Shown here: positions 2,072 to 58,384 of the stretch, one piece after another | Numbering within the stretch: position 1 is the stretch's first letter | Layout: every line of letters begins with the position of its first letter | Assembly: GCA_963747235.1 (NCBI GenBank) | Contig: CAVVEU010000039.1 | Location: 1 to 64,000, forward strand | Origin: an uncultured Candidatus Rokubacteria bacterium | Lineage (GTDB): Bacteria > Methylomirabilota > Methylomirabilia > Rokubacteriales > CSP1-6 | DNA length: 64,000 nucleotides | Direction of reading: 5' to 3' | Translations under genes and position numbers: made by a program | The notes under the pieces: model-generated | The model's input: only the letters and a program-made list of their open reading frames with translations | Told to the model about the DNA's origin: nothing | Databases searched by the model: none

Positions 2072-4702
2072 GTGAGCGACACGTCCACGGCGGCCGCTGC
2101 CGAGGCGGGGCTCACGACGGTCGAGGCCCAGCGCCGCCTGAGCCAGCTCGGCCCCAATCGCGTGGCCGACCGGGGCGAGGTGCCGCTGTGGCAGCTGGCC
2201 CTCGCCCAGTTCCGGAGCCTCGTGGTCTTGCTGCTGCTCGCCGCCTCCGGCATCGCGTGGGCGCTGGGCGAGCGGGCCGAGGCCGTGGCGATCCTCGGCG
2301 CGCTCGTGCTGAACGCGGCCATCGGCTTCGGCTCCGAGTGGCGCGCCCGGGTGTCGCTGGCCAGGCTGCGCGCGCTCGCGGTGCCGCAGGCGCTGGTCCG
2401 GCGCGACGGGTACGTGACCCAGATCGCTACCGCGGAGCTCGTACCGGGGGACGTGCTCGTCCTGGACGCGGGGGCGGCGGTGCCCGCGGACGCGCGGCTG
2501 CTGCGAGCCGCGGCCCTGCAGGTGAACGAATCCACCTTGACCGGCGAGAGCGCGGCGGTCTGGAAGGACGCCGCCGCGACGTCGGGGCCCGACACCCCGC
2601 TGGCCGAGCGCGCGAACATGCTCTACCTCGGCACCACGATCCTCTCCGGGAGCGCGGTGGCTCTCGTCACCGCCACCGGGGCCGCGACGGAGCTCGGCCG
2701 GATCGGACGGCTGGTGGCCTCCGCCGGCTCGCGGACGACGCCGCTCGAGCGCCAGGTGGAGTCACTGGGCCGGCGACTGATCGTGCTGGCGGTCGGCATC
2801 TGCGCGGTGGTGGGTCTCGCCGGCATCCTGCACGGGGAGCCGGTCGGGCTGATGCTGGAGACGGCGGTCAGCCTCGCCGTCGCCGCCGTGCCGGAGGGCC
2901 TGCCGGCGGTGGTCTCGCTCGCGCTGGCCGCCGGGCTCTGGCGGCTCGCGCGCCGCGGCGCGCTCGTCCGGCGCCTGGCCGCGGTGGAGACGCTCGGCTC
3001 GGCCACCGTGATCTGCGCGGACAAGACCGGCACCATGACCGAGAACCAGATGACGGTAACGTCGCTTCGATACGGCGGCCGTCGGGTCACGGTCGGCGGT
3101 GGCGGGCGCTCGACCGCAGGAAGCTTCGTGGACGAAGCCGGCCGCATCGTCACCCCGCTCGCCGATCCGCATCTCACGCTGCTGCTCACCGCGGCGGCGC
3201 TGTGCAACGACGCGAGCCTCCGGCCCGCGCCCGACGGGCTTCATCTCGTTGGCGATCCGACCGAGTCGGCCCTGCTGGTGGCGGCAGTCAAGGCCGGGCT
3301 CGATCCGGCCGACCTGGCACGGGCCTGGCCCCGTCACCGTGAGATCCCGTTCGATCCGGTGACGCGCATGATGGCGACCTTCCACGTCATGCCGGGCGCC
3401 GGGCCCGTGCTCCTGGTCAAGGGCGCCCCCAGCGTGATCGTGGAGCGGGTGACGCGCTCTCACACGGTCGCGGGCCCGGTCGCGCTGAGCGACGAGGATC
3501 GGGTCCGCCTGCTCGAGGAGAACCGGGACCTGGCTCGCGAGGGATTCCGTGTGCTCGCGTTCGCGTGGCGCCCGGTCCCCTCGATCGAGGACGCGCCCGT
3601 GGAGGAGCTCACGTTCCTCGGCCTCGTCGGATTCGTGGATCCGGTGCGTTCGGGGGTGGCGGACGCCATCGCGGCCTGTCGAGAGGCCGGCATCCGCACG
3701 ATCATGCTCACCGGCGACCAGGAGCTCACCGCCCTGACGGTGGGGCGTCAGCTCGGCCTCGAGCCGGAGGCGATCCGGAGCCGGGTCAGTCCGGAGGGCA
3801 AGCTCGAGCTGGTGGCCGAGCTGCAGGCCCGGGGTGAGATCGTGGCCATGACTGGGGACGGGGTCAACGATGCGCCGGCGCTCGTCCGCGCGGATATCGG
3901 CGTGGCGATGGGCCGGCGCGGCACCGACGTGGCACGCGAGTCGGCCGATCTGGTGCTCATCGACGACAACTTCGCGACCATCGTCCTGGCCGTGAAGGAA
4001 GGGCGCGTGATCTACGCCAATCTCCGCAAGGTCATCCGCTTCCTCTTCTCGTGCAACCTCTCCGAGATCCTCACCATCTTCGTGGCCATCCTGCTCGGCT
4101 ATCCCACGCCGCTCCTGCCGCTGCAGATCCTGTGGGTGAACCTGGTCACCGACATCCTGCCCGCGACCGCCCTGATCCGGGATCCGGCCGACGACGACGT
4201 CATGGGACGCCCCCCGCGCGATCCCGCCGAGGCGCTCGTCACCTGGCGGTCAGGCGCGCGCATCCTGGGCGAGGGCGCGCTGCTGGCGGCCGGGGTGCTC
4301 AGCACCTATCTCTGGACCGTGTGGCGGGAGGGCCCCGGCCCGTCGGCCAGCACGATGGCCTTCATGGCGCTGGTTCTGATCCATCCGTTCCAGGCCATGA
4401 GCTGTCGGTCGGAGCGTCTCAACTGGTGGCAACTCAGACCCAATCCATGGATCCCGCTGTCGCTGGTGGCCCTCTTCGCGCTGCAGTGGCTCGCGATTAC
4501 ATGGGGGCCGCTGGCCCGCCTGCTCGGCACGAAGCCCCTGACCGGCGTTGACTGGCTCGTCCTGGCGCTGGGTGTGCTGTGGCCGGTGGCCCTGCTGGAG
4601 GCCCTGAAGGCCTGGGGCCGCTTCACCACATTGAGGCCCGCCTACCCCACCGTGGTGACCCAGGATGAGCCGCAATCCTCGAGATCACCGCGAAAGGATT
4701 GA
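2072..4702 (+). CDS. Cation-transporting P-type ATPase (type IIA, Ca2+/CtpF-like)
   Basis: TGES, VPEGLP, DKTGT, GDPTE, MTGDGVNDAPAL, ILWVNLVTD. Confidence 0.92.
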   Translation: MSDTSTAAAAEAGLTTVEAQRRLSQLGPNRVADRGEVPLWQLALAQFRSLVVLLLLAASGIAWALGERAEAVAILGALVLNAAIGFGSEWRARVSLARLRALAVPQALVRRDGYVTQIATAELVPGDVLVLDAGAAVPADARLLRAAALQVNESTLTGESAAVWKDAAATSGPDTPLAERANMLYLGTTILSGSAVALVTATGAATELGRIGRLVASAGSRTTPLERQVESLGRRLIVLAVGICAVVGLAGILHGEPVGLMLETAVSLAVAAVPEGLPAVVSLALAAGLWRLARRGALVRRLAAVETLGSATVICADKTGTMTENQMTVTSLRYGGRRVTVGGGGRSTAGSFVDEAGRIVTPLADPHLTLLLTAAALCNDASLRPAPDGLHLVGDPTESALLVAAVKAGLDPADLARAWPRHREIPFDPVTRMMATFHVMPGAGPVLLVKGAPSVIVERVTRSHTVAGPVALSDEDRVRLLEENRDLAREGFRVLAFAWRPVPSIEDAPVEELTFLGLVGFVDPVRSGVADAIAACREAGIRTIMLTGDQELTALTVGRQLGLEPEAIRSRVSPEGKLELVAELQARGEIVAMTGDGVNDAPALVRADIGVAMGRRGTDVARESADLVLIDDNFATIVLAVKEGRVIYANLRKVIRFLFSCNLSEILTIFVAILLGYPTPLLPLQILWVNLVTDILPATALIRDPADDDVMGRPPRDPAEALVTWRSGARILGEGALLAAGVLSTYLWTVWREGPGPSASTMAFMALVLIHPFQAMSCRSERLNWWQLRPNPWIPLSLVALFALQWLAITWGPLARLLGTKPLTGVDWLVLALGVLWPVALLEALKAWGRFTTLRPAYPTVVTQDEPQSSRSPRKD

Positions 4703-4728
4703 GCTCGCGCGTTGGCACCCGCGTTGCT
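4613..4728 (+). promoter_or_regulatory. Sigma-54 promoter module P1
   Basis: UAS TGGGGCCGCTTCACCACA 4613-4630 and TGAGGCCCGCCTACCCCA 4632-4649; TGGCAC-CCGCG-TTGCT 4713-4728. Confidence 0.85.
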
Positions 4729-4741
4729 CTGTGAAGGCGAT

Positions 4742-7148: not shown

Positions 7149-7256
7149 CGGGGTACGGCTGTCCCACCTGAGGCGAGCGCGCTGTCCCGTCGGAGAGAGC
7201 CGGACCCTCGAATCGGCTTTCTTTTCGGTGGCCTGCGAGAGGGTATGTCGCTTGCA
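7149..7256 (+). promoter_or_regulatory. Sigma-54 promoter module P2 (ybaK-like/groEL operon)
   Basis: UAS CGGGGTACGGCTGTCCCA 7149-7166 plus half-site TGAGGC at 7169; GGGTAT-GTCGC-TTGCA 7241-7256. Confidence 0.65.
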
Positions 7257-7716: not shown

Positions 7717-9342
<1,626 letters not shown>

Positions 9343-14274: not shown

Positions 14275-14417
14275 TCCGGCCGGCGTGCCCCACGTGTGGC
14301 GCGCACGCCTCATCTCTACCAGAGCCCCCCCCGGCTCGCCGGCGCCCGACAACTCGCAGCAACCCAAGCGTTATCACACCATGGCCAGAGAGAAGTCGAG
14401 CTGGCACGGACGATGCT
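14275..14417 (+). promoter_or_regulatory. Sigma-54 promoter module P5
   Basis: UAS TCCGGCCGGCGTGCCCCA 14275-14292 and TGTGGCGCGCACGCCTCA 14295-14312; TGGCAC-GGACG-ATGCT 14402-14417. Confidence 0.75.
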
Positions 14418-18646: not shown

Positions 18647-19669
18647 TCAGCGCGGGGCGTACCGCCGCGTGATGTTCGGCACGAGGTATTCCTCGAACGT
18701 GCGCCTGAGATCGTAGGCCGGCCGGAAGCCCCAGTCGCGTCGAGCCGGCGTGTCGTCCACGTCCTCGGGCCACGAATCGACGATGGCCTGCCGGCGCCGG
18801 TCCGGCGCGAAGGAGATCCGGGCTTCCGGAAACACGCTGCGCACGAGATCGGCCAGCTCGCCGGCGCTGGGGCTGAAGGCGGCGACGTTGTAGACCGGCC
18901 TGGTCAGCGATCCGGCCGGCGCCTCGAGCAGCGCCAGCAGGGCGGTGATCGCGTCGGGCATGGCCATGAACGGGATGCGGGTGTCCTCCCGGACGAAGCA
19001 GGCGTACGGGCGTCGCTGAGCCGCGGCGTGGATCATCTCCGGCGCGTAGTCGCTCGTGCCGCCACTCGGCTCCGTGAAGGCGGAGATCAGCCCGGGGAGG
19101 CGGATCGCCCGGAAATCGACCCCGCTCGGCTCGCCGGCCGCCAGCTGGCGGTAGTGACGCGCGAAGTAGCGCCCGAGGTGCTCGCAGTAGAGCTTGTTGC
19201 AGCCGTACATCGTGGTGGGCGAGAGCCACACGGGTTCGGTCACCTTCCCGGCCGCGCGCTTGGTGTCGAGGTCCGGCATCCCGTAGACCGCGATCGAGCT
19301 CGGGAAGAGGAACCGGACCGGATGGCCGAGCGAGCGGGCCTCGTCCACGGCCAGACGCAAGAGGTTCAACGTGCCCTGCACGTTGACCTCGTGGGCCGTT
19401 TCCGGCACGAACTCCGCCCGCGTGGAGAGGAGCGCGGCCAGATGGAAAACGACCGAGATCTCGAACTCGCTGCGGAGACGGTCCAGCAGGTGGCGGTCGA
19501 GGATGTCCCCGATCCGGGTCGCCGCGCAGCGCCGCGCGATTGCCTCGTCCATGGCCCGGACGTCGAGGGCCAGCACGTCGTAGACCGCGAGATCCGCGAG
19601 TTGATGGATGAGGCCGTGTCCGACCTCGCCCCCCGCGCCGGTCACCAGGACCACCGGCCTGCGTGTCAT
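18647..19669 (-). CDS. SDR-type L-threonine 3-dehydrogenase (NAD-epimerase fold)
   Basis: [37 protein letters not shown]; adjacent to kbl. Confidence 0.85.
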
Positions 19670-19733
19670 CAGGACTCTCCTGGCCCCGACCGATAGCAGG
19701 GCCGGCGGCCCTGCGCAAGAGCACCGGGCCTGC

Positions 19734-19849
19734 CGGGACTCCGCCGCCTCATCCGGGGAGCCGTCGCCTCACTCGCCCACGCCCGGCGAGGCTCAGTCCG
19801 GATGATGAGGGCGGGAATCCTCGGCCGACCGCGTGGCACCGCCTTTGCT
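19734..19849 (+). promoter_or_regulatory. Sigma-54 promoter module P6
   Basis: UAS CGGGACTCCGCCGCCTCA 19734-19751 and CGGGGAGCCGTCGCCTCA 19754-19771; TGGCAC-CGCCT-TTGCT 19834-19849. Confidence 0.88.
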
Positions 19850-19879
19850 CCAGCTTCGCGTGGAGCCCAGGAGGCCGCC

Positions 19880-20299
19880 ATGATCGCACGCGAGCTGATG
19901 ACACCGGACCCGCTGACCGTGACGCCCCAGGCGAGCGTCGCCGAGGTGTGGGACCTCATGCGCGAGGCGGACGTCCGGCACATCCCGGTCGTCCAGGCTG
20001 ATGCCCTGGTGGGCATGGTGAGCGATCGCGACCTCGGGCGCGTGGACATCGCCCGGCTGCTGAATGTCGAGGGAGCGGGCGCGCTCCGGGATGAGCTGGC
20101 AACGCCGATCGTCCGGGTCATGACCTCCCAGGTGATCGCGGTGGGGCCGGAGGCGGACATCGGCGAGGTGATCGAGCTCCTGATCGAGCACAAGATCGGC
20201 GCGCTCCCGGTGGTCCAGGAGGAGACCCGCGAGGTGCTGGGGATCATCAGCTACGTGGACGTGCTAAGGGCGCTGCAGGGCGTGCTGGACGAGAACTGA
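19880..20299 (+). CDS. CBS-pair protein
   Basis: VRHIPVV..GMVSDRDL; KIGALPVV..GIISYVDVL; AGGAGG RBS. Confidence 0.9.
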   Translation: MIARELMTPDPLTVTPQASVAEVWDLMREADVRHIPVVQADALVGMVSDRDLGRVDIARLLNVEGAGALRDELATPIVRVMTSQVIAVGPEADIGEVIELLIEHKIGALPVVQEETREVLGIISYVDVLRALQGVLDEN

Positions 20300-20319
20300 A
20301 CGAACGGGCCGGTGCCGCC

Positions 20320-21435
20320 TTGAAGAGTCAGCTCGAGGTTGCCGAGGTCTGGGGGATCCCGATCCGTGTCCATCTGAGCTGGGTCCTCGTCTTCGGCCTC
20401 GTGACCTGGTCGCTGGCGGCCGGCTACTTCCCAGCCGAGTATCCGGGCTGGACCGTCCCGTCCTACTGGGCGATCGGAGCGGTCACCGCGCTCGCCTTCT
20501 TCGCGTCCATCCTGATCCACGAGCTGGGGCACTCATGGGTGGCCCGGCGAAACGGGATCCCGATCGAGAGCATCACCCTGTTCGTGTTCGGCGGCGTGGC
20601 CCGGATCTCCCGGGAGCCGGACACGCCGGGCGTGGAGTTCCGGATGGCGATCGCCGGACCCGTGACGAGCTTCGTGCTGGCCGGCCTGTTCGCGGGAGCG
20701 TGGCAGCTGGCCTGGGAGGCGCCGCTGCTCGCGGCGCCCGCGATCTGGCTGGCCCGCATCAACTTCCTCGTGGCGGTCTTCAACCTGGTGCCCGGCTTCC
20801 CGCTGGACGGCGGCCGCCTCTTGCGCGCGGCGGTGTGGCACTTCACCGGGAGCCTCCATCGCGCGAGCCAGGTCGCGGCCTTCAGCGGCCAGCTCGTGGC
20901 GTTCGGCCTCATCGGCTGGGGCATCCTGACCGTGATGGGGGGCAACGTGATCGGGGGCATGTGGCTCGCCTTCATCGGCTGGTTCCTCCAGAATGCCGCC
21001 GCCCACAGCCACGCCGAGGCCAATCTGCGGGAGCTGCTGCGCGACGTGACGGTGGCCCAGGCGATGACATCGGACTGCCGGCGCATCGCGCGCGGCGCGA
21101 GCCTCGAGCGCATCGTCCGCGAGGAGGTGCTGGGGGCGGGGCGGCGCTGCTTCGCGGTGACGGAGGGCGAGCGGCTGACGGGCCTGCTCACGCTGCACGA
21201 GATCAAGGCCATCCCGCAGGAGCGCTGGGCCGAGGTCACCGCGGGGGAGATCATGACGCCGGCGGAAAAGGTGACCGTGGTGGAGCCGAAGGCGGATCTG
21301 CTCACCGCGCTCAAGAAGATGGACGACGCCAACGTGGCACAGGTGCCGGTGCTGGCCGCCGGCGAGCTCGTCGGCATGATCGGCCGGGAGCAGATTCTTC
21401 ACTACGTCCGGGTGCGCGCCGAGCTGGGCGTGTAG
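20320..21435 (+). CDS. Site-2 protease (M50) with C-terminal CBS pair
   Basis: HELGH, AIAGP, FNLVPGFPLDGGR, then two CBS repeats. Confidence 0.95.
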   Translation: MKSQLEVAEVWGIPIRVHLSWVLVFGLVTWSLAAGYFPAEYPGWTVPSYWAIGAVTALAFFASILIHELGHSWVARRNGIPIESITLFVFGGVARISREPDTPGVEFRMAIAGPVTSFVLAGLFAGAWQLAWEAPLLAAPAIWLARINFLVAVFNLVPGFPLDGGRLLRAAVWHFTGSLHRASQVAAFSGQLVAFGLIGWGILTVMGGNVIGGMWLAFIGWFLQNAAAHSHAEANLRELLRDVTVAQAMTSDCRRIARGASLERIVREEVLGAGRRCFAVTEGERLTGLLTLHEIKAIPQERWAEVTAGEIMTPAEKVTVVEPKADLLTALKKMDDANVAQVPVLAAGELVGMIGREQILHYVRVRAELGV

Positions 21436-21451
21436 GGCGCGGTCCCCCGGG

Positions 21452-21800
21452 CTAGTCCCGGCCACTCCTGAAATCGAGCGCTTCCGCGGTGTACCGATTG
21501 CCGGGATTCCAGAGCATCCAACCGGTCGCCCCGCCATCCAGTGCGCCTCTCATCTGGGCGCGAATCTCCGGCACCCCGAACGAGCGGCGGTGCTGGCGGC
21601 GCGGTGCACCCCCACACCACTCGTCTGTGCGCTCACTTCGGCCTTCGCCCGCTGGGACTGATCGGATCCGGCGCATTGCTCCTGACGATCGCCGGGCGCC
21701 CCCGGCGCTGCTCGGCGCCTTCGGACGTCGGCGGATCTCCGCCGCGGTCATCGGCGCGGTGACGCCCGGCCGGGGTGTCGATGCGTATCGAGGAGGGCGG
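21452..21800 (-). pseudogene. Remnant of a putative glycoside hydrolase (DUF4015-like) gene
   Basis: C-terminal FGVPEIRAQM..GWMLWNPGNRY; the rest is missing. Confidence 0.5.
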
Positions 21801-21874
21801 CGGGTGGCCTTCCAATGGTCGCCCCGGGACGAGTTGACCCGTCTTCGGTAGCGCGGCACCGGCTTGCCCGCCCG

Positions 21875-21989
21875 CGGGGACGCCGCGCCCCGCTGGGGTG
21901 GCGTCGCCCCATCGAACCGGGTGCCCCCGCGGTGTAACCTGTCGGGATCCTGGGGTTCTGATGGTGCGGCTCGTGGCAGCAGAGTTGCA
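21875..21989 (+). promoter_or_regulatory. Sigma-54 promoter module P7 (IHF/HU operon)
   Basis: UAS CGGGGACGCCGCGCCCCG 21875-21892 and TGGGGTGGCGTCGCCCCA 21894-21911; TGGCAG-CAGAG-TTGCA 21974-21989. Confidence 0.88.
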
Positions 21990-22010
21990 AAGTCCTCTCG
22001 CGGGAGACCG

Positions 22011-22319
22011 ATGGCCATGAACAAGAGCGACCTGGTTCTCGAAGTGGCCCGGGCCGCGGGTCTCACCCGCGAGCTGAGCGAAGCGGTCGTGACCGCGGTA
22101 TTCGAGCGGATCACGGAGGCGCTGGTGAGGGCGGAGCGCGTGGAGCTGCGCGGTCTGGGCACGTTCGAGGTGAGGCAGCGAGCCGCGCACGCCGGCCGGA
22201 ACCCGAAGACCGGTGCCCCGGTCCAGGTCCCGACCCGGAAGGTCCCGTTCTTCCGGACCGGGAAGGAGCTGCGGGCGATCCTGAATCCGCAGGCGGCGCC
22301 CGAGAAGGTCCACGCATGA
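22011..22319 (+). CDS. HU/IHF-family DNA-bending protein (IHF-beta-like)
   Basis: MNKSDLV..VELRGLGTF..GRNPKTG..VPFFRTGKELR. Confidence 0.93.
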   Translation: MAMNKSDLVLEVARAAGLTRELSEAVVTAVFERITEALVRAERVELRGLGTFEVRQRAAHAGRNPKTGAPVQVPTRKVPFFRTGKELRAILNPQAAPEKVHA

Positions 22320-22756
22320 ACGTTGGCGACGTGATGACCAAGGACCCGGTGGTGGTCGATCTCGACAGCCCGGTGCGGGTGGCGGCGGACCTGATGCGGA
22401 GCAAGGGCATCCGCCACCTCCCGGTCGTCGACGCAGGCGCTCACGTGCTCGGGATCGTCACGGACCGCGACCTGCGCCACGCGGCGTTCCTGCCCGCGCT
22501 GGCGGGGCAGACGGGCCTGGCGCCGCACCGGGTCAAGGCGCCGAGAGTCCGGGACGTGATGACGTGGTCGGTCGTGACGACCCAGGCCGAGACCCCGCTG
22601 GTCCAGGCGGCCCTGACGATGTTCCAGCGGAGGATCGGAAGCCTGCCGGTCGTCGCGGACGGCCGGCTCGTGGGCATCCTGACCGAGCACGACGTGTTCA
22701 CCGGGCTCACGAAGGGATCCGGCGTCGAGAGCGAGGCCGAGTTCTTCCTCTGGTGA
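22316..22756 (+). CDS. CBS-pair protein
   Basis: IRHLPVV..GIVTDRDLRHA; IGSLPVV..GILTEHDV. Confidence 0.9.
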   Translation: MNVGDVMTKDPVVVDLDSPVRVAADLMRSKGIRHLPVVDAGAHVLGIVTDRDLRHAAFLPALAGQTGLAPHRVKAPRVRDVMTWSVVTTQAETPLVQAALTMFQRRIGSLPVVADGRLVGILTEHDVFTGLTKGSGVESEAEFFLW

Positions 22757-22758
22757 GC

Positions 22759-24091
22759 ATGCCCACGCGGATCGTGATCCTGGGCGCGGCCGGCCGCGAC
22801 TTCCACAACTTCAACGTGGTCTACCGCAACGACCCGGACGTCCACGTGGTGGCGTTCACCCAGGCCCAGATCCCGCGCCTGAGCGACCGCCGCTATCCCG
22901 CCTCGCTCGCCGGGGCGTGCTATCCGGCGGGGATTCCGATCGAGGACGAGGCCGACCTGGAAGCGATCTGCCGGCGCGAGGCGGTGGATCGCGTCGTGTT
23001 CGCGTACAGCGACGTCCCGCACGCGGCCGTGATGCACCTGGCCTCGCGGGCCCTCGCGGCGGGCGCGGACTTCACCCTGCTCGGCCCCCGGAGCACGATG
23101 CTCCGGGCGCGCGTGCCGGTGATCGCCATCTCGGCCCTCCGGACCGGGTGCGGCAAGTCCCAGACCGCGCGCTGGCTCGGAAGGCGGCTCCGCGAGCGCG
23201 GGCACAAGGTCGCGGTGCTGCGGCACCCGATGCCGTACGGCGACCTCGAGCGGCAGCGGGTGCAGCGGTTCACGCGGCGCGAGGATCTCGATGCGGCGGG
23301 ATGCACCGCCGAGGAGCGCGAAGAGTACGAGCCGCACCTGGCCGCCGGCCACGTCGTCTTCGCGGGAGTGGACTACGCGGCGATCGTGGAGCGGGCCGAG
23401 CGCGAGGCGGACCTCATCGTGTGGGACGGGGGCAACAACGATTTCCCGCTGCTGCGGCCGGATCTGCACATCGTCATGGCCGACGCGCTCCGGCCCGGGC
23501 AGGCCGACGGCTACCACCCGGGAGAAGCGGTGCTGCGCATGGCGGACGTCGTCGTCATCAACAAGGTGGACGCGGCTTCGGCCGGCAACGTGCGGGCGGT
23601 CACCGACGAGGTGCGCGCGATCAACCTGCGGGCCACGATCGTGCTCGCGGCATCTCCGGTCCGGCTGGACGACCCCGCCGCGGTGCGGGGGCGGCGTGTC
23701 CTGGTGGTGGAGGACGGCCCGACCCTCACGCACGGCGGCATGGCGTACGGCGCGGGCTACGTCGCGGCCACCGCGGGCGGCGCGGCGGCCATCGTGGATC
23801 CGCGCGCCTCCGCCGCGCTCGGCGTGCGGGAGATCTTTGCCCGCTACCCGCACATCGGACCCGTGCTCCCGGCGGTCGGCTACGACGCGGGCCAGCTCCA
23901 GGAGCTCCGCGAGACGATCAATCGATCCGTCGCGGACGTGGTGGTGGCGGCGACCCCGCTCGATCTGGGCGCGCTGATCAGCGCTCGAGAAGCCGGTGGT
24001 GCGCGCGCGCTACGAGTTCGAGGACGCCGGGGAGCCCACCCTGGGGTCGCTCGTGGATACGTTCCTCGAGCGAGGCGCCGCAATCCAATGA
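22759..24091 (+). CDS. COG2403 P-loop protein (cyclic 2,3-diphosphoglycerate synthetase/arginine synthetase-like); one frameshift near 23985
   Basis: ILGAAGRDFHNFN, RTGCGKSQT, RHPMPYGDL, EEREEYEPH, WDGGNND, EDGPTLTHGGM; true C-terminus KPVVRARYE is in another frame, ending TGA 24091. Confidence 0.85.
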
Positions 24092-27461: not shown

Positions 27462-27462
27462 C

Positions 27463-34923: not shown

Positions 34924-34995
34924 TCTGAAAAGTCGTACCGGGACGCCACTTGCGTCCGCCCCGGGGCTCCCGCCCGGACGGAATCCCGACGACAG

Positions 34996-35080
34996 TGGGG
35001 CGCCGGTGTCCCGCGTCACGACAGCCGGGGCGGCGATTCTCACCATCTTGCGTCGTTTGGGCGCTGGCACCCGGCTTGCT
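34996..35080 (+). promoter_or_regulatory. Sigma-54 promoter module P10
   Basis: Single clear UAS TGGGGCGCCGGTGTCCCG 34996-35013; TGGCAC-CCGGC-TTGCT 35065-35080. Confidence 0.85.
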
Positions 35081-40111: not shown

Positions 40112-41413
40112 GTGCCAAACGACCGATACGGCCTTGCCGTAACCACGGCGGCTCCGACGGCGCTCGAGGCGTACGATGCCGGCGTCGAGGCCGCGCTCGG
40201 CTGGAAGGCGAACGCCCTCGATCTGTTCCGCGAGGCGACGCAGGTGGATCCGTCGCTGGCGGTGGCGCACGCCGGCGCGGCGGCCTGTCTGTTCCTGGAA
40301 GAGCGGTTCGGAGAAGCCCGTGCGGCCGGCGAGGTAGCCCAGGCCGCGGCGACGCCGGGCGTGAGCGCTCGCGAGCGTGGCTACGTCAACGCGGTTACCC
40401 TGTGGACGGCCGGCAAGGTGCCCGAGGCGGAAGCCGCGATGCGCGAGCATCTCGCGCAGTATCCGCGCGACCTCGCCATCATCCAGCGGCTCTACTTCGT
40501 CTTCTTCTGGCAGGGGAAGTTTCCCGCCATGCTCGAGACGACCAGCGAGCTCGTTCGCCATCATCCCGAGAGCTCCTACATGCTGGGCATGCACGCCTTC
40601 GCGCTGGAGGAGGCGGGACGCTGCCCGGAGGCCATCCGGCTCGCGGACGACGCCATCACGAGGAACCCGGAGGACGCGTGGTCGATCCACGCCCTCGCCC
40701 ACGCGCTCTACGAGTCGGCCGCGTTCGACACGGGGGCGACCCGGCTGCCGGCGGCGATCGAGCCGTGCCGCGGCCTCAACTGGTTCCAGAACCACCTCTG
40801 GTGGCACCTGGTGCTCATGCACCTGTCACGCGGCGAGTACGCCCGGGTGTCCGACCTGTCGCGCCGGCTCTTCGAGCAGGCGCCGTCCTCGATCGCCGGC
40901 GACCTGCACGACTCGATCTCGCTCCTGTGGCGGCTCGAGCTGACCGGGCACCCGCCGGGCGACCGCTGGCAGCCGTTCACTGCCATCGCGCGTGACCGCA
41001 TCGGGCGGACGGGCCTCCTGTTCCACGTCGCGCACGTGGCGATGGCGCTGGCGGGTGGCGGCGACTGGGCCGGCGTCGACAAGCAGCTCGCCCTCCTGCG
41101 CGAGCGGGCGCCGAAGGACCCGACGGGGCTGATGGGCGAGGTGACCCTGCCGCTGGTGGAAGGGCTCCACGCGTTCGCGGCGCGGGACTGGCCGCGCGTG
41201 ATCGCGAAGATCGAGCCGCTCCGGCCGCGGATCGTCGAGCTCGGCGGCAGCCGCGCCCAGCGCGATGTCTTCCACGACACGCTGATCGAGGCGTGCTTCC
41301 GCGGCGGCGACATGGATCGCGCCGAGCGGCTGCTCGCCGAGCGCCTCCAGCGGCGCCCCGACCACTTCTGGCTCCACCGGCTTCAGGCCGGCGCGGCGCC
41401 TTCGCCGAGCTGA
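40112..41413 (+). CDS. TTC38-like TPR protein
   Basis: DRYGL.VTT, MHAFALEE, DAWSIHALAH, HLWWH, SLLWRL, LGGSRAQRD. Confidence 0.85.
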   Translation: MPNDRYGLAVTTAAPTALEAYDAGVEAALGWKANALDLFREATQVDPSLAVAHAGAAACLFLEERFGEARAAGEVAQAAATPGVSARERGYVNAVTLWTAGKVPEAEAAMREHLAQYPRDLAIIQRLYFVFFWQGKFPAMLETTSELVRHHPESSYMLGMHAFALEEAGRCPEAIRLADDAITRNPEDAWSIHALAHALYESAAFDTGATRLPAAIEPCRGLNWFQNHLWWHLVLMHLSRGEYARVSDLSRRLFEQAPSSIAGDLHDSISLLWRLELTGHPPGDRWQPFTAIARDRIGRTGLLFHVAHVAMALAGGGDWAGVDKQLALLRERAPKDPTGLMGEVTLPLVEGLHAFAARDWPRVIAKIEPLRPRIVELGGSRAQRDVFHDTLIEACFRGGDMDRAERLLAERLQRRPDHFWLHRLQAGAAPSPS

Positions 41414-41461
41414 GGGGCGCGAAGCCCACCCGAGTACTGCCGGCCCGCCCGGCCACGCCAC

Positions 41462-41546
41462 TGGGGCGCGACGGCCCCACCCACCTTCCCGGGGGCCGCG
41501 ATAAGTGGTTGATTTTGGCTGTGCTTCGGCTGGCACTCCCGTTGCA
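41462..41546 (+). promoter_or_regulatory. Sigma-54 promoter module P11
   Basis: UAS TGGGGCGCGACGGCCCCA 41462-41479; exact IHF consensus (minus strand AATCAACCACTTA) 41502-41514; TGGCAC-TCCCG-TTGCA 41531-41546. Confidence 0.92.
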
Positions 41547-41595
41547 GTTCCTCCTCGCTGATTGCCGTCACTTCACGACCGAAGAGGAGGACGCC

Positions 41596-41805
41596 ATGAC
41601 ACTCGAACGCTGGATCCGTCTCATCGCGGGTAGCTTCGTCACGATCAGCGTCGTCCTGAGCTACTTGCACAGCCCGTACTGGCTCTTCTTCACGCTGTTC
41701 GTCGGGCTCAATCTGTTCCAGTCCGCGCTGACTCGCTGGTGCTTGATGGAAGAGTTCCTCAAGAAGCTCGGGGCCCGCAGCGAGGCCGCCGGCAGCCGGG
41801 CATGA
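41596..41805 (+). CDS. DUF2892/YgaP-like membrane protein
   Basis: ERWIRLIAG..FVGLNLFQS..WCLM. Confidence 0.88.
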   Translation: MTLERWIRLIAGSFVTISVVLSYLHSPYWLFFTLFVGLNLFQSALTRWCLMEEFLKKLGARSEAAGSRA

Positions 41806-41872
41806 CCACCTGCGGCGGCTGGCGCGGGAGAAGGGCTCCGCGGCTGCTGGCCACACGGGCGGAGGTCGTGGC

Positions 41873-43078
41873 GTGAGCGCGCGGTCGGCGCGCCCGATGC
41901 TCGGCCTGGCCGGCCTGCTCCTGCTCGTCGGATGCGGGAGCGAGCGTGCCGCGGAGGTGCCGGGAGAGCGGCCCGCGCCGGTGAGCGGCGTCCGGGTGGA
42001 GGCGGTGAGGCCGGCCGCCATCCGGGACGCCGTGGAGGTTGCGGGCACCGTCCGGACCAGGACCCGGATGGTTATCGCCAGCAAGGTGCAGGGCTACGTC
42101 CGGGAGGTGCGGGCGCGCCAGGGCGATCACGTCGAGCACGGCCGGGTCCTGGTGACGGTGGACGAGCGCGAGCTCGCCGCGCGCGCCGACCGCGCGCGGG
42201 CCGCCCTCGCGGAAGCCGAGATGAGCCTCGATGAAGTGAGGCGGACACTGGAAGAGGCCGAGGCCTCGCTCCGCTCCGCCGCGGCGGAGCGCGCCTACGC
42301 CGAGGCGACGGCGAGCCGATACCGCCAGCTGTGGGAGCGCGAGCTGGTCAGCGCGCAGGACTACGAGGCCGTCGAGGCCAGGCGCAAGAGCACGGCCGCG
42401 GCCGTCGAGCAGGCCGAGGCGCGGATCCACTCGGTTCGCGCGCGCGAGAAGCAGATGAGCTATCGGATCGACGCGGCCGCGGCCGAGCTTCGGGCGGCCG
42501 AGATCGCGCTGGGCGAGACGCGTATCACGGCGCCCGCCACCGGCGTGGTGGTGGATCGTCGCGTAGAGCCGGGGGACCTGGCGATGCCCGGGCAGCCACT
42601 GCTCGTCCTCGACGACCCGCGGGCGTACCGGCTCGAAGCCGAGGTCGGTGAATCGGCCGTGGGCAGCGTGCGGTTGGGCCAGAGGGTCCCGGTCGTGCTC
42701 GATTCGCTCGATCGCACTCTCGAAGGCCGTGTGGTCGAGATCATCCCGACCGCCGATCCGTCCAGCCGGACGGTGACGGTCAAGCTGGACCTCCCGGTCG
42801 CCCCGGGATTGCGCTCGGGTCTGTTCGGCCGCGCTCGGTTCCCGGCCGGGGAGCGCCAGGTGCTCGTGGTGCCGATCTCGGCTCTGATCGAGCGGGGACA
42901 GCTCAGTGCCGTGTACGTGGTGGATGATCAGGGTATCGCCCGGCTCCGGCTGGTCACCGCAGGCGTGCGCCACGCCGACCGCGTCGAGATCCTTTCGGGG
43001 CTCGATGCCCACGAGCGCGTCGTGGTGGAGGGTGCCTCGCGGGTGAGCGACGGTTCGCGGGTGGCAGCCGGGCCGTGA
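41873..43078 (+). CDS. RND efflux periplasmic adaptor
   Basis: LVGC lipobox, [33 protein letters not shown]. Confidence 0.92.
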
Positions 43079-46000
43079 CCGCCCCGGTCGGCTTCGCGGG
43101 CCGCATGGCCCGGACGTTCATCGACTCCAAGCTGACGCCGCTCGTCGTGCTGGCCTCGCTCCTGCTGGGCCTCTTCGCGATGCTGGCCACGCCGCGCGAG
43201 GAGGAGCCGCAGATCGTGGTGCCGATGACGGACGTGTTCGTCGAGATGCCGGGGGCCGGCGCTCAAGGAGGTCGAGGAGCGCGTCACCATCCCGCTGGAG
43301 AAGAAGCTGAGGGAGATTCCCGGGGTCGAGTACGTCTACTCGACCAGCCAGCCCGGGCCAGCGCTGGCCATCGTGCGCTTCAAGGTCGGCGAGGACGAAG
43401 AGCACAGCATCGTCAAGCTCTACAACAAGATCTGGGCCAACTTCGACCTGATCCCGCCGGGCGCCTCGACAGCCCCTCGTCAAGCCGCGCTCGATCGACG
43501 ACGTGCCGATCCTCGCCCTGACCCTGTGGAGCGACCGCGTGGATCGCGTACACGCTGCGGCGGATCGCGGCGCAGCTCGACGACCAGATCAAGGACATCA
43601 CCGACGTCGCCGAGACCCGGCTCATCGGCGGCGCAGCGACGCCAGGTGCGCGTGCCTGCTCGACCGCGCGCCTGGCGGCCTACCGACTGGCGCCGGGCGG
43701 CCGTGGCTGGCGGCGCTACGGCGAGGCCAACCGCGAGCTGCGGGCCGGGAGCGCTTCGAGCCGCGGCAACCGGGAGTATCTCGTGGACGCCGCGAGTCTT
43801 CCTGGACGGAGCCAGAGCGACGTCGGGCCGGGTGGTCGTCGGGCGTCACGCGGACGGGCGACCGGTGTACCTGCGGGATGTGGCGCCGCATCGATGGACG
43901 GGCCGGAGGAGCCGCGCTCGTACGTCTTCTTCGGCGTCGGCGCGGCGGCCCACACCGCGGCCGCGCAGGGCCACATGGCCCAGGGGCTGGGTGCCCGGCC
44001 GGTCGGCCAGGACTACCCGGCCGTCACCATCTCGGTGGCCAAGCGCAAGGGCACGAACGCCATCGTGATCGCCGAGCAAGGTGCTGGCAAAAGTGCGAGT
44101 CGCTGAAGGGCGTGCCTGATTCCCCGCCGACGTGCAGGTGTCACGGTGACCCGCAACTACGGCGAGACGGCCCAGGGAGAAGTCCAACGAGCTGCTCATG
44201 CACCTGTTCCTGGCGACGGTCTCGGTGACCATCCTGATCGCGCTCTTCCTGGGCTGGCGCGCCGCCGTCGTGGTCCTGTTCGCCGATCCCGGTCACCCTG
44301 GCGCTGACCCTCCTGATCTACTACCTGTACGGCTACACCCTCAACCGCGTCACCCTCTTCGCCCTGATCTTCTCCATCGGCATCCTGGTGGACGACGCCA
44401 TCGTGGTGGTCGAGAACATCCCCCGCCACTTCCACCTGCCGGACAACCACGGGCGGCCGCTGCGTCCGGGTGGCGGTCGAGGCGGTGGACGAGGTCGGCA
44501 ACCCCACCATCCTGGCCACCTTCGCCGTGATCGCCGCGATCCTGCCCATGGCCTTCGTCGGCGGCCTGATGGGCCCCTACATGCGCCCGATCCCGGTCGG
44601 CGCCTCCGTGGCCATGCTCTTCTCGCTCTTCATCGCCTTCATCGTCTCCCCCTGGGCCGCCTACCGCATGCTGAAGGGCGCGCAGCCGCGGCAGCACGGC
44701 CAGCGAGGAGCACGGAGGACTGGACCACCCGGCTCTACCGCCGGCTCATGACGCCGCTGATCCACTCGACTGGAAGCGCCGCTGGCTCTTCCTGGGCGGG
44801 CGTCGTCCTGCTGCTGCTGGCATCCGTGCTCGCTGGTCTATTTCAAGCTGGTGCGCGTCAAGATGCTCCCCTTCGACAACAAGAGCGAGCTGCAGGTGAT
44901 CGTGGACATGCCGGAGGGCACCACGCTGGAGCAGACGGCGCGCGTGACGCCGCGAGATCGGGCGAGCCCTGGCACGGCGCCGCGAGGTGACCGATCTACC
45001 AGCTCTACGTCGGCACCGCGCGCCCTACAACTTCAACGGCCTGGTGCGCCACTACTTCCTGCGTGCGCAGGGCTCCAACCTGGCCGACATCCAGGTCAAC
45101 CTGCTGCCCAAGGACGAGCGCGAGCGACCAGAGCCACGCCATCGCCAGGCGCGTCGCGGCCCGGTATTCAAGCGATCGCCGGACCGGTACGGCGCCCGGG
45201 TCAAGGTGGCGGAGGTCCCGCCGGGACCGCCGGTGCTGCAGACCCTGGTGGCCGAGGTGTACGGCGCCGGACCACGACCGCGCAGCTCGACGCTCGCGCG
45301 CCGAATCCAGGACGTCTTCGAGCAGAACGCCCGGCGTGGTGGACGTGGACTGGTACGTGGAAGATCCCCAGCCCGGCGTACCGCTTCGTCCGTCGACAAG
45401 GAGAAGGCGGCGCTGCTCGGGCATCTCCGCCGAGCAGATGGTCCGGAACCCTGCGCATCGCCTTGGCCGGAGCGAGCCCGGCCTGGCGCACCTCCCGGCG
45501 GAGAAGGAAGACGTGCCGATCTTCGTGCGCCTGCCCCGCGACCAGCGTCAGCGGAGTGGACGCGCTCGCCGGACTCCGCGCTCAAGGGCGGCGAGCGGCG
45601 CGCTGGTGCCGCTCGCCGAGCTGGCGCGGGTGGAGGCCACCGCCGAGCCGCCGCTCGTCTACCGGAAGAACCTCAAGCGCGTCGTCTACGTCACCGGCGA
45701 CGTGGCGGGGCAGGAGGAGAGCCCGGTCTACGCCATCCTCCGGATGAACCGGGAGCTGGACGCCGTGCGCCTGCCCGACGGCCGCCGCATTCCCCGGTAC
45801 GTCGGCCAGCCAGCCGTTCCTCACCGAGCACGCTCGCCATGAAGTGGGACGGGGAGTGGCAGGTCACCTACGAGGTGTTCCGCGACCTGGGGCTCGCCTT
45901 CGGCGCGGTCATGGTGCTGATCTACATCCTGGTGGTGGGCTGGTTCCGCTCGTTCCGGCACCCCGCTCGTGATCATGGCGCCGATCCCGCTCACCCTGGT

Positions 46001-46350
46001 CGGGATCCTGCCCGCCCACGGGCTGCTCGGCGCCTTCTTCACCGCGACGTCGATGATCGGCTTCATCGCCGGGCGCCGGCATCATCGTGCGAAACTCCAT
46101 CATCCTGGTGGACTTCATCGAGCTCCGCAGGGCCCAGGGGATGCCGCTGGACGAGGCCGTCGTGGACGCCGGCGCGGTACGCTTCCGTCCGATGCTGCTC
46201 ACCGCGGCCGCGGTGGTGGTGGGCGCCTCGGTGATCCTGTTCGACCCGATCTTCCAGGGCCTGGCCGTGTCGCTCATGGCGGGCGAGGTGGCCTCGACCC
46301 TGCTGTCCCGCATGGCCGTGCCGGTGCTCTACTACATGGCCGAGAAGTGA
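43075..46350 (+). CDS. RND permease (AcrB family), many small frameshifts
   Basis: [57 protein letters not shown] recovered across frames. Confidence 0.88.
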
Positions 46351-48733: not shown

Positions 48734-48848
48734 CGAGGCGCGCGCGCCCCAACCGGGAGCGGCTGCCCCAGCCAGTCCGACGCGCGCCCGGCCAACCCTG
48801 CGTTTTTGCTCGCGCACACAGGCAGAGCCCCGTGGCACTTGCCTTGCA
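48734..48848 (+). promoter_or_regulatory. Sigma-54 promoter module P12
   Basis: UAS CGAGGCGCGCGCGCCCCA 48734-48751 and CCGGGAGCGGCTGCCCCA 48753-48770; TGGCAC-TTGCC-TTGCA 48833-48848. Confidence 0.9.
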
Positions 48849-54628: not shown

Positions 54629-56074
54629 ATGGCGGAGCCGGCGACGAATCAGCCGCAGTCCGCGTTTTCGGTGTTCGAGGAGGCGTTCGCCCGTGCCGCG
54701 GGGACGCCGCTCGTCACCGGCAACGAGGTGCGGCTGCTCCGGGACGCGGGCGAGAACTATCCGGCCTGGCTCGACGCCATCGCGGCGGCCCGCCGCACGA
54801 TCCACTTCGAGAGCTACATCATCCACGACGACGAGACCGGGGAGCAGTTCGCCCGCGCGTTGAAGGCGAAGGCCGCCGAGGGCGTGCGGGTGCGCCTCAT
54901 CTACGATTGGCTCGGCGCGGTGGCCAAGACGTCCCGGAGATTCTGGCGTGATCTGCGCGAGGCCGGGATCGAGGTCCGCTGCTTCAATCCGCCCGGCCTG
55001 TCGAGCCCGTTCGCCTGGATCTCCCGCGACCACCGGAAGATGCTGGCGGTGGACGGGCACGTCGCCTTCGTCACCGGGCTCTGCGTGGGGCGCGCCTGGG
55101 TCGGCGATCCGGCCCGCGGCGTCGAGCCCTGGCGCGACACCGGCATCGCGGTCCGTGGCCCCGCGGTCGCGGATCTGGAATCGGCGTTCGCCCGGATGTG
55201 GGCGCTGGCCGGCTCTCCGATCGCGGATGCGGAGCTGCCAACGCGCGAGTCGCTGGCCCCGGCGGGGGACGTCGCGGTGCGCGTCATCGCGGGCATGCCC
55301 GGAACCGCGGAGCTCTATCGGCTGGATCAGCTCATCGCGGCCGCGGCGCGCGAAACCCTCTGGCTCACCGACGCCTACTTCGTCGGCACGACCGCCTACG
55401 TGCAGTCGCTCCGCGCGGCGGCGCGTGACGGCGTGGACGTGCGCCTGCTGGTGCCCGGCGCGAGCGACATCTGGGTCCTGCGCGGCCTCTCGCGGGCGGG
55501 GTATCGCCCGCTCCTCGAGGGCGGCGTGCGCGTCTACGAGTGGAACGGTCCGATGCTCCACGCCAAGACCGCGGTCGCGGACGGGCGATGGGCCCGCGTG
55601 GGCTCGACGAATCTCAATCTCCAGTCGTGGATCGGCAACTGGGAGCTGGACGTGGCGGTGGAGGACGAGGGCTTCGCCGCGCCGGATGGAGGACATGTAC
55701 CTCGACGATCTCGGCCGCGCGACCGAGATCACGCTCACGCGCTGGCGCGCGCGTCGTGCGCACCGCGAAGCCGCCCGGGCTTCCCAGGCGGCGGCCGGGC
55801 AGCGCGGGGCGGGCCGCGGCGGGCGCGGTGAGCATCGGCAGCGCGGTGGGGGCCGCCATGACGGGCCGCCGCGTGCTGGGCCCGGCCGAGGCCCGGATCA
55901 TGGGCGGCGGCGGGGGTGGCGCTCCTGGCGCTGGGGCTGGTGGCGCTGCTCTGGCCCCGGGTGATCGCGGTGCCGCTTGCGGCGCTCGCGATCTGGCTGG
56001 CGGTGAGCCTGCTGTTCCGCGCCAGGGCCCTGCGACGCGAGCGGAGCGAGGAGCCGCGGGACACCGAGGGCTGA
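54629..56074 (+). CDS. Cardiolipin synthase-like phospholipase D with C-terminal TM helices (frameshifts after 55680)
   Basis: Two HKD motifs [10 protein letters not shown] and [10 protein letters not shown]; WRDT; VGSTNL. Confidence 0.88.
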
Positions 56075-56082
56075 GCCGCGAG

Positions 56083-58237
56083 ATCAGCCCCCCGGGGCTG
56101 TCGACCGGGAAGGTCAGCGTGAACGTGCTGCCCTTGCCGACCTCGGAGCGGACGTCCAGCGTCCCGTGGTGATCGTGCACGATGCCGTGGCTGATCGACA
56201 GACCGAGCCCGGTCCCTTCCGGCTTCGTGGTGAAGAACGGATCGAAGATCTTCGGCAGGAGGCTCGGCGGGAATCCCGGAGCCGGTATCGCGCACCGCGA
56301 GGCGCACCGAGCGGGCGGCGGCCAGATGGCTGGTCTCGATCGTGATCTCGCCGCCCTCGGGCATGGAGCCCCGGGCGTTGGTGAGCAGGTTGAGCAGCAC
56401 CTGCCCGATCGCGTTGGCGTCGGCCACGATGGTGGGCATCGTCTCGTCCAGCTTCGTCGTGACCTGGACCCGCGCCCGGCTCATGTCCTTGCGGACGAGC
56501 TGGACGATCTCCTCCGTGACCTGGTTCAGGTTCACGGGGCCGCGGGTGCCGGACGACTGGCGGGCGAAGGACAGGAGCCCCTGGGTGATCGTGGCCACCC
56601 GCCGGGCGTGGCGCAGGATGACCTCGAGGTCCTTCCGCACCTCGTCGGGGAGCCCCACTTCGTCGGCCTCGAGCATCATGACCTCGACACGCGAGGTGAT
56701 GATGCCGATGGGATTGTTGATCTCGTGGGCGATGCCGGCCGACAGGGTGCCCAGCGCGGCCAGCTTGTCGGCCTGGCGGGCGGCCTTCTGGAACGCCACC
56801 CGCTCGCTGATGTCGGTGACGAAGGCGATGGCGCGCACGCCCTCGTCGGTCTCGACGTAGCTCAGGCTCACCTCCACCGGGAACTCGGTTCCGTCCTTCT
56901 TGAGCGCGGCCAGGTCGAGCCCCCGGCCCATCGAGCGGATCCGCGGCGCCGCCATGTAGGTGCCGCGATGGGCGACGTGCCGCTCGCGGAGCGGGGCCGG
57001 GATGAGGGCCTCGACCGGCTGCCCGATCAGCTCGGCCTGCGTGTAGCCGAACATCGCCTCGGCCCTGGCGTTGACCAGCACGATGCGGCCCGCCGCATCG
57101 GTGACCACGATGCTCTCGGTCACGGAGGCGAGGAGCGCCCGGGACGTGGCCTCGCTGCGGCGCAGCGACTCCTCGGCCACCCGGCGCGCGGAGACGTCGC
57201 GCGCCACGATGGACGCGCCCACCGACCTGGTCGGCGTCGTCGCGGATCGGCGAGATCGTCATGAACACGTGGATCCGCCGCCCCGACCCCGTCATCTGCT
57301 CGGCTTCGATCCGCTCGACCCGCTGCTCCCGCAGGACGCGGGTCAGGCTGGCCGCGACCTCGTCGTTGTGCCGGTCCGGCCCCAGGATGTCGATCGGCAG
57401 GCCGGTGACCTCCTCTCCCCGATGCTCGTAGAGCCGCTCCGCGCCCGCATTCCAGGTGAGCACGCGTCCGTCGGGCCCCAGCCCGATGATCGCGTCGTCG
57501 GACGACTGGACGATCGACGTGAGCAGCGCGCTCGTCTGCTCGTACTCGACCACCTGGCTCCGCAGCGCGTCCCGGGTCGCCCGGATCTCGCCCGCGCGCC
57601 GTCGATACTCGACGAGGACGACCACGAGCAGGCCGAGCGTCACCGCGGCCAGCCCGGCCAGCCCGAGGAACACGCGGTGAGCCTGCCGCGCATACCGGGT
57701 CGATTGCTCGGCCTGGATCTGGCGCTCCTCCGCCTTCATGGTGGCGACGGCGGAGCGAATCTGCTCCATGAGCCGCAGGCCGCGTCCGGTCAGCAGGCGC
57801 TGGACCGCGACGTCGGTACGCCGCTCGCGGCCGAGCTGGACCGTGTCGCGCAGCTCGCCGAGCTTGTCCGTGACGAGCGGCTCCAGGGTGTCGACGTGCC
57901 GCCGCTGGCGCACATTCCCCTCGGTCAAGCCGCGGAGGGTCCGCAGGTGGCTCGCCGCGGAGTCGAACGCGGTGAGATACGGCGCGAGATAGCGCTCGTC
58001 GCCGGTCATCAGGAAGCCGCGCTGTCCGGTCTCGGCATCGGTCACCGCCGAGAGGACTCCATCCAGCTCACCGAGGACCTGGCCGGTCTGACGGGCCGTC
58101 TGGTACTGTTCGGTGAGATCGCGCGCGCCGAGCGCGATGACCGCAATGGCCAGCACGAGGGCGGCGGCCACGGAGAACGCAACGCTCGTGCGGTTGTGGA
58201 GAAGCCAGGGGAGCACGCCGCTGGGCGGTTGAGCCAT
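56083..58237 (-). CDS. Sensor histidine kinase CHASE3-PAS-PAS-HisKA-HATPase, NtrB/AtoS-type (frameshifts near 57225 and 56265)
   Basis: [66 protein letters not shown]. Confidence 0.9.
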
Positions 58238-58279
58238 GCCGGCTGCATTGTCGGCCAGGAGCGCGGTGCCTTCAAGGTC

Positions 58280-58384
58280 TGGGGCGGCGGCGCCTCAGCG
58301 GGGCACGGCTGCCGCGCGAGGCGGCCGGGTCCAGTGCTGTAACGGGTTGAATGTATGGCAATTCTAGCTGGCACCTCGGTTGCA
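58280..58384 (+). promoter_or_regulatory. Sigma-54 promoter module P13
   Basis: UAS TGGGGCGGCGGCGCCTCA 58280-58297 and CGGGGCACGGCTGCCGCG 58299-58316; IHF-like (minus ATTCAACCCGTTA) 58340-58352; TGGCAC-CTCGG-TTGCA 58369-58384. Confidence 0.92.

Follow-up and report, generated by a model that had tools for sequence, protein, structure and literature searches.

The stretch of DNA analysed here (the window) comprises 64,000 nucleotides of an uncultured Candidatus Rokubacteria bacterium, namely positions 1 to 64,000 of contig C39 of its source genome (G000), with a GC content of 71%. It carries thirteen sigma-54 promoters (P1 to P13) belonging to one stress island. Read from the sequence, their palindromes and their sites resembling the binding consensus of integration host factor (IHF) are, with rather high confidence, phased so that a bound activator can loop onto the promoter through an IHF bend. 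This supports the phased enhancer-IHF-promoter geometry that an initial annotation of the window had proposed.

Geometry of the thirteen promoters

The thirteen -24/-12 boxes are located on the plus strand upstream of genes (Table 1). Eleven are canonical, P2 is non-canonical at -24, and P3 has GT at -12. The palindrome, referred to here as the box, is 18 base pairs (bp) in length with the logo TGRGGCR-N4-YGCCYCA, and occurs mostly in abutting tandem pairs. P10 and P11 have one good box each and not a pair, the proximal box of P2 scores -3.0, and the boxes of P4 and P5 resemble each other. In the source genome, 19 of the 220 intergenic sigma-54 candidates have a box pair scoring at least 12 (C39, 11; C42, 3; C31, 2; C28, 2; C24, 1).

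The gap, as used here, is counted from the proximal palindrome up to the T of TGG and is smaller by one than the previous count to the first G. Counted to the first G, the distance classes of 51-55 and 61-64 bp given in the initial annotation, with P5 at 90, were reproduced exactly for all thirteen promoters. When tested against a uniform spread over 50-63, the two-class split in the window alone (12 promoters, P5 omitted) gives a P of about 0.07.

Stepped spacing in relatives

A set of 485 sigma-54 candidates was drawn from 78 RtcB loci, 59 later loci, and the source genome. The closest RtcB relatives (78-95% identical) are labelled mostly Rokubacteria or Methylomirabilota. Box pairs sought regardless of position gave 174 promoters from 76 sources. 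These still form 160 clusters at 68% identity, so most of the spacers are unalignable. The boxes of a pair have a period of 19-20 in 127 of the 160 non-redundant promoters.

The gaps of these promoters are 38-44 (10 promoters), 48-55 (88), 59-65 (34), and 69-74 (11), with 5 below 36 and 12 above 74. The four bands hold 143 of the 160, and no promoter falls at the nine positions 45-47, 56-58, and 66-68. These trough positions were picked after a first view of the data, and loci L083 to L112 were fetched with a gap range of 44-74, which fixes the range and not the phase.

A genome-wide pattern search listed the best 150 of 318 matches, of which the 143 outside the source genome (39 genomes) were analysed. 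Among these listed matches the band means are 51.8, 62.7, and 71.5, and two matches lie in 11 trough positions where about 51 would be expected. At 10.5 bp, R is 0.65, and none of 20,000 draws from a uniform distribution reached this value. In this search with a single box, the 71.5 band consists largely of the distal boxes of class-52 pairs. Gaps of 75-105 (94 matches, R 0.36) show peaks at 82-83 and 92-93 with broad shoulders.

Single orthologous promoters also shift by whole turns. Orthologues of the post-RtcB promoter, which is P12 in the window with a gap of 62, have gaps of 51 (three loci), 61-63 (six), and 72 (two). For the Usp promoter that follows the activator gene described below, the gap is 52-55 in ten orthologues, 63 in two, and 74 in one. 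Spacing is thus stepped in orthologous and non-orthologous promoters of relatives alike, and the continuous spacing that the initial annotation had named as a refutation was not observed. The argument from 10-bp quantisation made in the initial annotation holds in the relatives, where the bands are separated by empty troughs, but is not significant in the window alone. Its two classes one turn apart describe the window distances but are too few, since four or more steps exist (near 42, 52, 62, and 72, with weaker ones at 82 and 92) and both arms of the loop vary independently. P5, taken as an outlier, is indeed off this lattice; its relatives have gaps of 84, 86, and 87, so it belongs to a looser long class.

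The same data bear on the proposal that duplicated promoter modules inherited their spacing classes from a common ancestor, or that these classes arose by chance in GC-rich DNA, and not through selection for helical phase. The marginal result in the window, the likeness of the P4 and P5 boxes, and the kinship of the genomes would fit such an origin, which is nevertheless highly improbable. Most spacers cannot be aligned, orthologues step by whole turns, the reversed pattern has three matches in 151 genomes, and the box persists in loci of 55-62% GC. The non-redundant spacing and the orthologue steps already largely refute it.

Divergent sigma-54 promoters sharing a box or box pair were also observed. 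Within window positions 34907-35080 the two gaps are 51 and 73, both lattice distances; at G060:C18:14826-14997 they are 52 and 72, and several further relatives have the same arrangement, each at a lattice distance.

IHF-like middle element

Nine of the window promoters contain a 13-mer that starts 22-24 bases after the palindrome and ends 17-18 or 27-28 bases before the first G (16-17 or 26-27 before the T), as previously described. The 13-mer at 41502 is an exact reversed IHF consensus (9/9). Near matches are found at 58340 (8/9), 27522 and 11946 (7/9 each), and 11580 (6/9). The sites listed as degenerate at 21935, 26423, and 48793 each match at 6/9, but the one at 4673 matches at only 4/9 and is not credible in its proposed register. 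At 200,000 positions drawn at random from contig C8, a background of mostly coding DNA, a YAA start within three allowed positions has a frequency of 2.2%; nine of thirteen promoters with such a start are therefore far beyond chance.

The 88 class-52 promoters were aligned on the -24 box with no motif assumed. A is present in 87% at 28 bases upstream and T in 71% at 17 bases upstream. The learned logo, YAA-N5-YGAWTT, matches in register the reversed IHF consensus of Huo et al. (2009, PMC2709558). The element ends 16-17 bases before the T in 78 of the 88 promoters (fit range 14-19), and a leave-one-out score of at least 5 is reached by 81% of promoters and by 1.1% of shuffled spacers.

Outside class 52, a confident element was identified in 27 of 63 promoters. 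Left out of these arm counts are gaps above 105 and five promoters with gaps of 19-32, which are probably mis-assigned pairs. The upstream arms, from box to element, measure 11-14 (4 promoters), 21-24 (9), 32-33 (8), and 42-45 (4), plus single cases at 55 and 71, placing 25 of 27 in four bands. The downstream arms, from element to promoter, measure 16-17 (13) and 24-28 (13), plus one at 39, placing 26 of 27 in two bands. A gap of 62 therefore arises both as 22+27 and as 33+16. Since the arms on both sides of the IHF-like site vary by whole turns, the arrangement is a lattice and not two classes.

The element is also found apart from the box. In 124 box-less sigma-54 candidates of the source genome it peaks at 16-19 and 24-29, as expected for a general architectural protein. 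At a loose score, a scan of the whole source genome gave 155 intergenic sigma-54-like promoters. Many of them have this reversed IHF-like element at 16-19 bases upstream, and the organism appears to use sigma-54 extensively.

With the bend centre taken as the first consensus base and the T numbered -26, the natural bend centres lie at -43/-44 and -53/-54, and at -66/-67 in the sister order. On relaxed templates, NtrC activated strongly with IHF centred at -44, -54, -55, -61, -64, or -69, whereas centres at -50, -53, -57, or -59 gave low activation (Huo et al. 2009, PMC2709558, Table 3). The natural centres fit the optima in that table well, those at -43/-44 and -53/-54 being at an optimum or one base from it.

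Candidate bending protein

The source genome encodes RpoN above cut-off and has genes resembling IHF alpha and IHF beta, with contig C20 carrying the best match to each. It contains seven genes of the HU/IHF family, and none is above the curated IHF cut-offs. One of them comes first after P7, and the regulon may thereby increase production of its own bender.

It is unlikely that the same geometry and activator are served by a bender other than classical IHF, whether HU, the IHF-beta-like protein of the island (22011-22319), or intrinsic curvature. The sub-threshold scores of all seven genes would agree with such a bender, as would the gene under P7 and the element of Rokubacteriales, which deviates at consensus position 8 and is without an A-tract. 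HU is not known to have a sequence preference, however, and the YAA...GAWT logo is base-specific at a fixed place. In the sister order, 3 of 12 promoters have the exact consensus (9/9) in opposite orientation, and the island paralogue was found in none of 60 relatives at E 1e-30. Classical IHF is accordingly retained as the putative bender.

Candidate activator and sensor kinase

A gene for an NtrC-type activator (G000 C31:143248-144649) is located between two box-pair promoters and encodes a REC domain, an AAA+ domain (GAFTGA), and a Fis-type helix-turn-helix (HTH). No named equivalog reaches its cut-off for this protein, the best being AtoC (472 of 714 bits). A homologue search with the C-terminal region returned generic names only among the best 120 of 699 matches. 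The gene is frameshifted in the source genome and whole in its orthologues; contigs from related strains have one base fewer at the frameshift site in 4 of 4 runs.

Across 61 genomes, the pattern is present in 30 of 34 with an activator orthologue and in 9 of 27 without one. On rechecking five pattern-bearing genomes scored as lacking the orthologue, three hold a partial match at 60-70% and two hold none. Of 30 loci with an activator orthologue, 19 have a box pair within 1.5 kilobases (kb), in many cases ahead of a Usp gene. From this linkage and co-occurrence, the activator is likely to read the box.

The window kinase is 71% identical over 320 residues to a kinase adjacent to the activator in a relative (G016). 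The PAS domain of the G016 kinase matches the heme PAS structures of FixL and DosP (E 4e-15 to FixL) with the proximal His aligned, and the window kinase keeps this His.

A regulator of the island with a PAS domain and a LuxR-type HTH (PAS-LuxR; G000 C42:13995-14633; L080:2996-3634) was also identified under a box-pair promoter. It contains a CC-x-CC-x-C Cys cluster, was found in 26 of the 61 genomes, and is possibly a second oxygen or redox sensor.

Sister order and range of the box

In the sister order (family f8, loci of 55-62% GC), ten chosen regions and the activator locus were read. The promoters have a single strong box at 87-88, 96-99, or 102. The IHF consensus reads forward, inverted relative to Rokubacteriales, matches at 6-9 of 9 positions, and ends 27-31 bases before the T in 11 of the 12 promoters read. 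The order kinase, activator, box promoter recurs there (L181). By eye, the targets at L171 to L181 include a molybdopterin oxidoreductase-like operon and GNAT and CBS genes.

Of 151 genomes belonging to the order, 94 have matches to the single-box pattern, compared with three matches for the reversed control. A strict double-box pattern matched 3 of the 151 and was too narrow as a search tool. A looser 40-70 pattern gave no match in any of five sister-order genomes of families f6 and f7. Outside the phylum, the pattern was absent from the two Binatia-, one Myxococcales-, and one Nitrospira-labelled genomes searched, and present in one Thermodesulfobacteriota-labelled genome and its one group mate; this sample is too small to set the range of the box. 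The box was not found in print by a literature search confined to open-access main texts, and a term search of PMC12316311 gave no mention of Rokubacter or Methylomirabil.

Proposed mechanism

The FixL-like heme-PAS kinase would sense low oxygen and phosphorylate the NtrC-type activator. Activator dimers would then occupy the tandem boxes, spaced at two turns, and form an AAA+ ring; IHF would kink the DNA near -44 or -54, and the ring would open the sigma-54 closed complex. The whole-turn distances are likely explained by the need for IHF to bend the palindrome-bound activator onto the same face as the waiting polymerase. If either arm tolerates about 10 extra bases and not 5, selection would keep only whole-turn insertions and deletions.

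Several observations weigh against this scheme. In the window, P2, P5, P6, and P10 (4 of 13) have no convincing element; counting weak ones, it is missing or weak in 5 of 13. A confident element is lacking in 36 of the 63 promoters of other classes, and in Rokubacteriales the element has neither the T of consensus position 8 nor an A-tract. With 94 of 120 and 112 of 120 bits, the C20 IHF-like genes do not reach the curated cut-offs. The fit to the optima of PMC2709558 hangs on one base of promoter numbering, because -53 is poor there. Phasing blurs past 75 (R 0.36 compared with 0.65), P5 with its gap of 89 is off the lattice, and the sister-order gaps are 4-5 bases off the Rokubacteriales lattice. 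Because kin genomes are not independent, the P values are overstated. The activator and kinase genes are both frameshifted in the assembly of the source genome. Four of the 34 activator-bearing genomes lack the strict pattern, and in G035 and G059 the pattern is present and no activator orthologue was found. In G164 (sister order, L182), an activator homologue (56%) with a similar HTH is present and no match was found to the box patterns searched. No sequencing run covers at least half of the words of window positions 19600-28100; the RNA runs were available as contigs, with shares of at most 0.12.

The mechanism itself is textbook and would not surprise a specialist. The window geometry is nevertheless real and looks functional, and helical phasing in two arms is seen here in an unusually clear natural form. 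In these natural sequences each arm of the enhancer-IHF-sigma-54 loop is phased separately, which was earlier seen mainly in engineered insertions; natural two-arm phasing was not found in print within the literature scope given above. The result is a precise and testable cis-code (box, bend site, and allowed distances) with a candidate kinase-activator pair for a stress or dormancy island in a widespread uncultured soil lineage.

A wider reading is possible but doubtful. Across Methylomirabilota, a DosR-type dormancy programme may have been rewired to one heme-sensing, sigma-54, IHF-looped switch. The number of turns per arm would then be a heritable gain setting, and promoters would move among 42, 52, 62, and 72 by whole-turn insertions and deletions that alter their induction rank. 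If so, several hundred natural promoters would amount to a ready-made insertion scan of enhancer looping.

Comparison with known systems

The IHF-dependent sigma-54 promoters (nifH/NifA, glnHp2, Pu, and pspA; PMC2709558) have the same order of enhancer, IHF site, and -24/-12 box, and their activity likewise depends on the centre of the IHF site. The promoters described here differ in having a new 18-bp box in abutting pairs, an enhancer closer than usual, and an IHF consensus that is reversed across a whole order; in PMC2709558, the nifJ IHF site is noted as opposite to the rest. They also provide natural variation over many promoters, where that work used insertion mutants. The NtrC motif was tried at the promoters and occurs at or near shuffle level.

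The NmpRSTU regulon of Myxococcus xanthus (PMC11841059) is alike in its NtrC-like activator, sigma-54 promoters, two enhancer sites, heme sensor kinase, Usp and CBS targets, and link to oxygen. Its sensor is a protoglobin, in contrast to the FixL-like PAS here, and a term search of its main text gave no mention of IHF. NmpR binds GCGCA-N5-TGCGC with 14-15 bases between sites (PMC11841059). This motif is present in 4 of 151 promoters (shuffled mean 4.0) and is not enriched.

The DosR/DevR regulon of mycobacteria resembles the island in its 18-bp G-rich palindromes, tandem and in helical phase (PMC3177182), with a period of 21 at tgs1 compared with 19-20 here. Usp, Hsp20, PFK, and cation ATPase genes are common to both (PMC3721108). 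An Rv2629-like factor is also present in the island, below cut-off. Further gene families overlap with the DosR regulon, and DevR is a LuxR/NarL-type activator that acts close to the promoter. The promoters here are instead sigma-54 promoters with a bend site.

This likeness gives a slim chance that the boxes are read by another protein, either the DosR-like PAS-LuxR regulator or a different enhancer-binding protein, the box then being related to the Dev box. The shared box layout and gene set would agree with this, as would the 20 AAA+ activator-like loci of the source genome and the co-occurrence of PAS-LuxR with the pattern (22 of 26 genomes with the gene and 17 of 35 without). Against it, the sigma-54 holoenzyme requires an AAA+ activator, and PAS-LuxR was not found in 10 genomes with at least two pattern matches. 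Its co-occurrence is weaker than that of the NtrC-type activator, so it fits worse as box reader. The Dev core (GGGACT, with G5 and C7) was also tried; GGGAC is present in 3 of 640 half-sites and the core palindrome in none of 151 promoters. At position 7 of the 18-bp box, the base needed by DevR, G accounts for 60% and C for 12% in this set. The NtrC-type activator remains the preferred reader.

The lxa locus of Burkholderia cenocepacia, considered together with the FixLJ-FixK/FNR regulons, is a co-regulated low-oxygen island of about 50 kb with many Usp genes, alpha-crystallin, PFK, and cation ATPase (PMC3721108). It is controlled through an FNR-like motif, TGA-N6-TCA (PMC3721108). Judged by gene family, the targets in the window resemble the DosR and lxa low-oxygen gene sets. 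The TGA-N6-TCA motif is present in 7 of 151 promoters (shuffle maximum 5) and the FNR box, with the full motif TTGAT-N4-ATCAA, in 4 of 151 (shuffle maximum 5); neither is clearly enriched.

Gene content and assembly

Table 1. Promoters and associated genes of the window. The first position of each plus-strand -24/-12 entry is the T of TGG; gap is counted to this T and distance to the first G.
Feature	Span	Strand	Boxes	IHF-like element	-24/-12	Gap	Distance	Genes and remarks
P1	4613-4728	+	4613-4630, 4632-4649	~4672-4685 (poor)	4713-4728	63	64	before HPF/S30AE-like, baeRF10
P2 (weak)	7149-7256	+	7149-7166, 7169-7186 (very weak)		7241-7256 (non-canonical)	54	55	before tRNA-edit gene, groEL
P3	11521-11624	+	11521-11538, 11541-11558	11580-11592	11609-11624	50	51	before DUF5670 small membrane protein
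P4	11886-11991	+	11886-11903, 11905-11922	11946-11958	11976-11991	53	54	
P5 (off-lattice)	14275-14417	+	14275-14292, 14295-14312	none strong	14402-14417	89	90	before BON-domain, Usp genes
P6	19734-19849	+	19734-19751, 19754-19771	none strong	19834-19849	62	63	before CBS, M50-CBS genes
P7	21875-21989	+	21875-21892, 21894-21911	21935-21947	21974-21989	62	63	first gene HU/IHF-family
HU/IHF-family gene	22011-22319	+						first after P7; best family IHF beta, below curated cut-off
P8	26364-26477	+	26364-26381, 26384-26401	26423-26435	26462-26477	60	61	before CBS, Usp genes
P9	27463-27567	+	27463-27480, 27482-27499	27522-27534	27552-27567	52	53	before Hsp20, PCMT, ABC exporter, PEP synthase
Divergent sigma-54 promoter	34907-34922	-	34996-35013 (shared with P10)		34907-34922	73		14th promoter, absent from the initial annotation
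P10	34996-35080	+	34996-35013 (single, strong)	none strong	35065-35080	51	52	before HAD, P-type ATPase genes
P11	41462-41546	+	41462-41479 (perfect)	41502-41514 (exact, reversed)	41531-41546	51	52	before YgaP-like, RND genes
P12 (post-RtcB)	48734-48848	+	48734-48751, 48753-48770	48793-48805	48833-48848	62	63	
Sensor histidine kinase	55735-58237	-						frameshifted; FixL-like PAS; divergent from P13
P13	58280-58384	+	58280-58297, 58299-58316	58340-58352	58369-58384	52	53	before Usp, CBS, acyl-CoA synthetase genes

A Pfam scan of 74 open reading frames of the window describes a stress island. It contains many Usp and CBS genes, Hsp20, GroEL, HPF-like, baeRF10, archease-RtcB, BON, PNPOx-like, and M50-CBS genes, two P-type ATPases, PEP synthase, PFK, the HU/IHF gene, and the sensor kinase. 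The right end of C39 overlaps the left end of C42, so the island continues past C39. Across window positions 62585-64000, G000 C39:64000-75878, and C42, genes for cupredoxin/heme-copper oxidase-like proteins and multiheme cytochromes were noted by eye, with the COX2 domain from Pfam. A sigma-70 promoter scan at 41000-42000 found none.

The assembly is rich in single-base insertions and deletions. Of the 20 AAA+ loci resembling activators, five are split, and rpoN is broken in two, so spacings in the source genome may carry noise of about one base. AcrB-like, kinase, Usp, and other genes are fragmented (window 43075-46350, 55735-58237, and others). Because such insertions and deletions are genome-wide, assembly error is likelier than decay of the island for these genes.

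A groEL paralogue is located within the island (7717-9342), with no adjoining groES called. Under P1 (4742-6281), an HPF/S30AE-like gene is followed by an Rv2629-like (baeRF10) gene, and the two are likely a ribosome hibernation pair.

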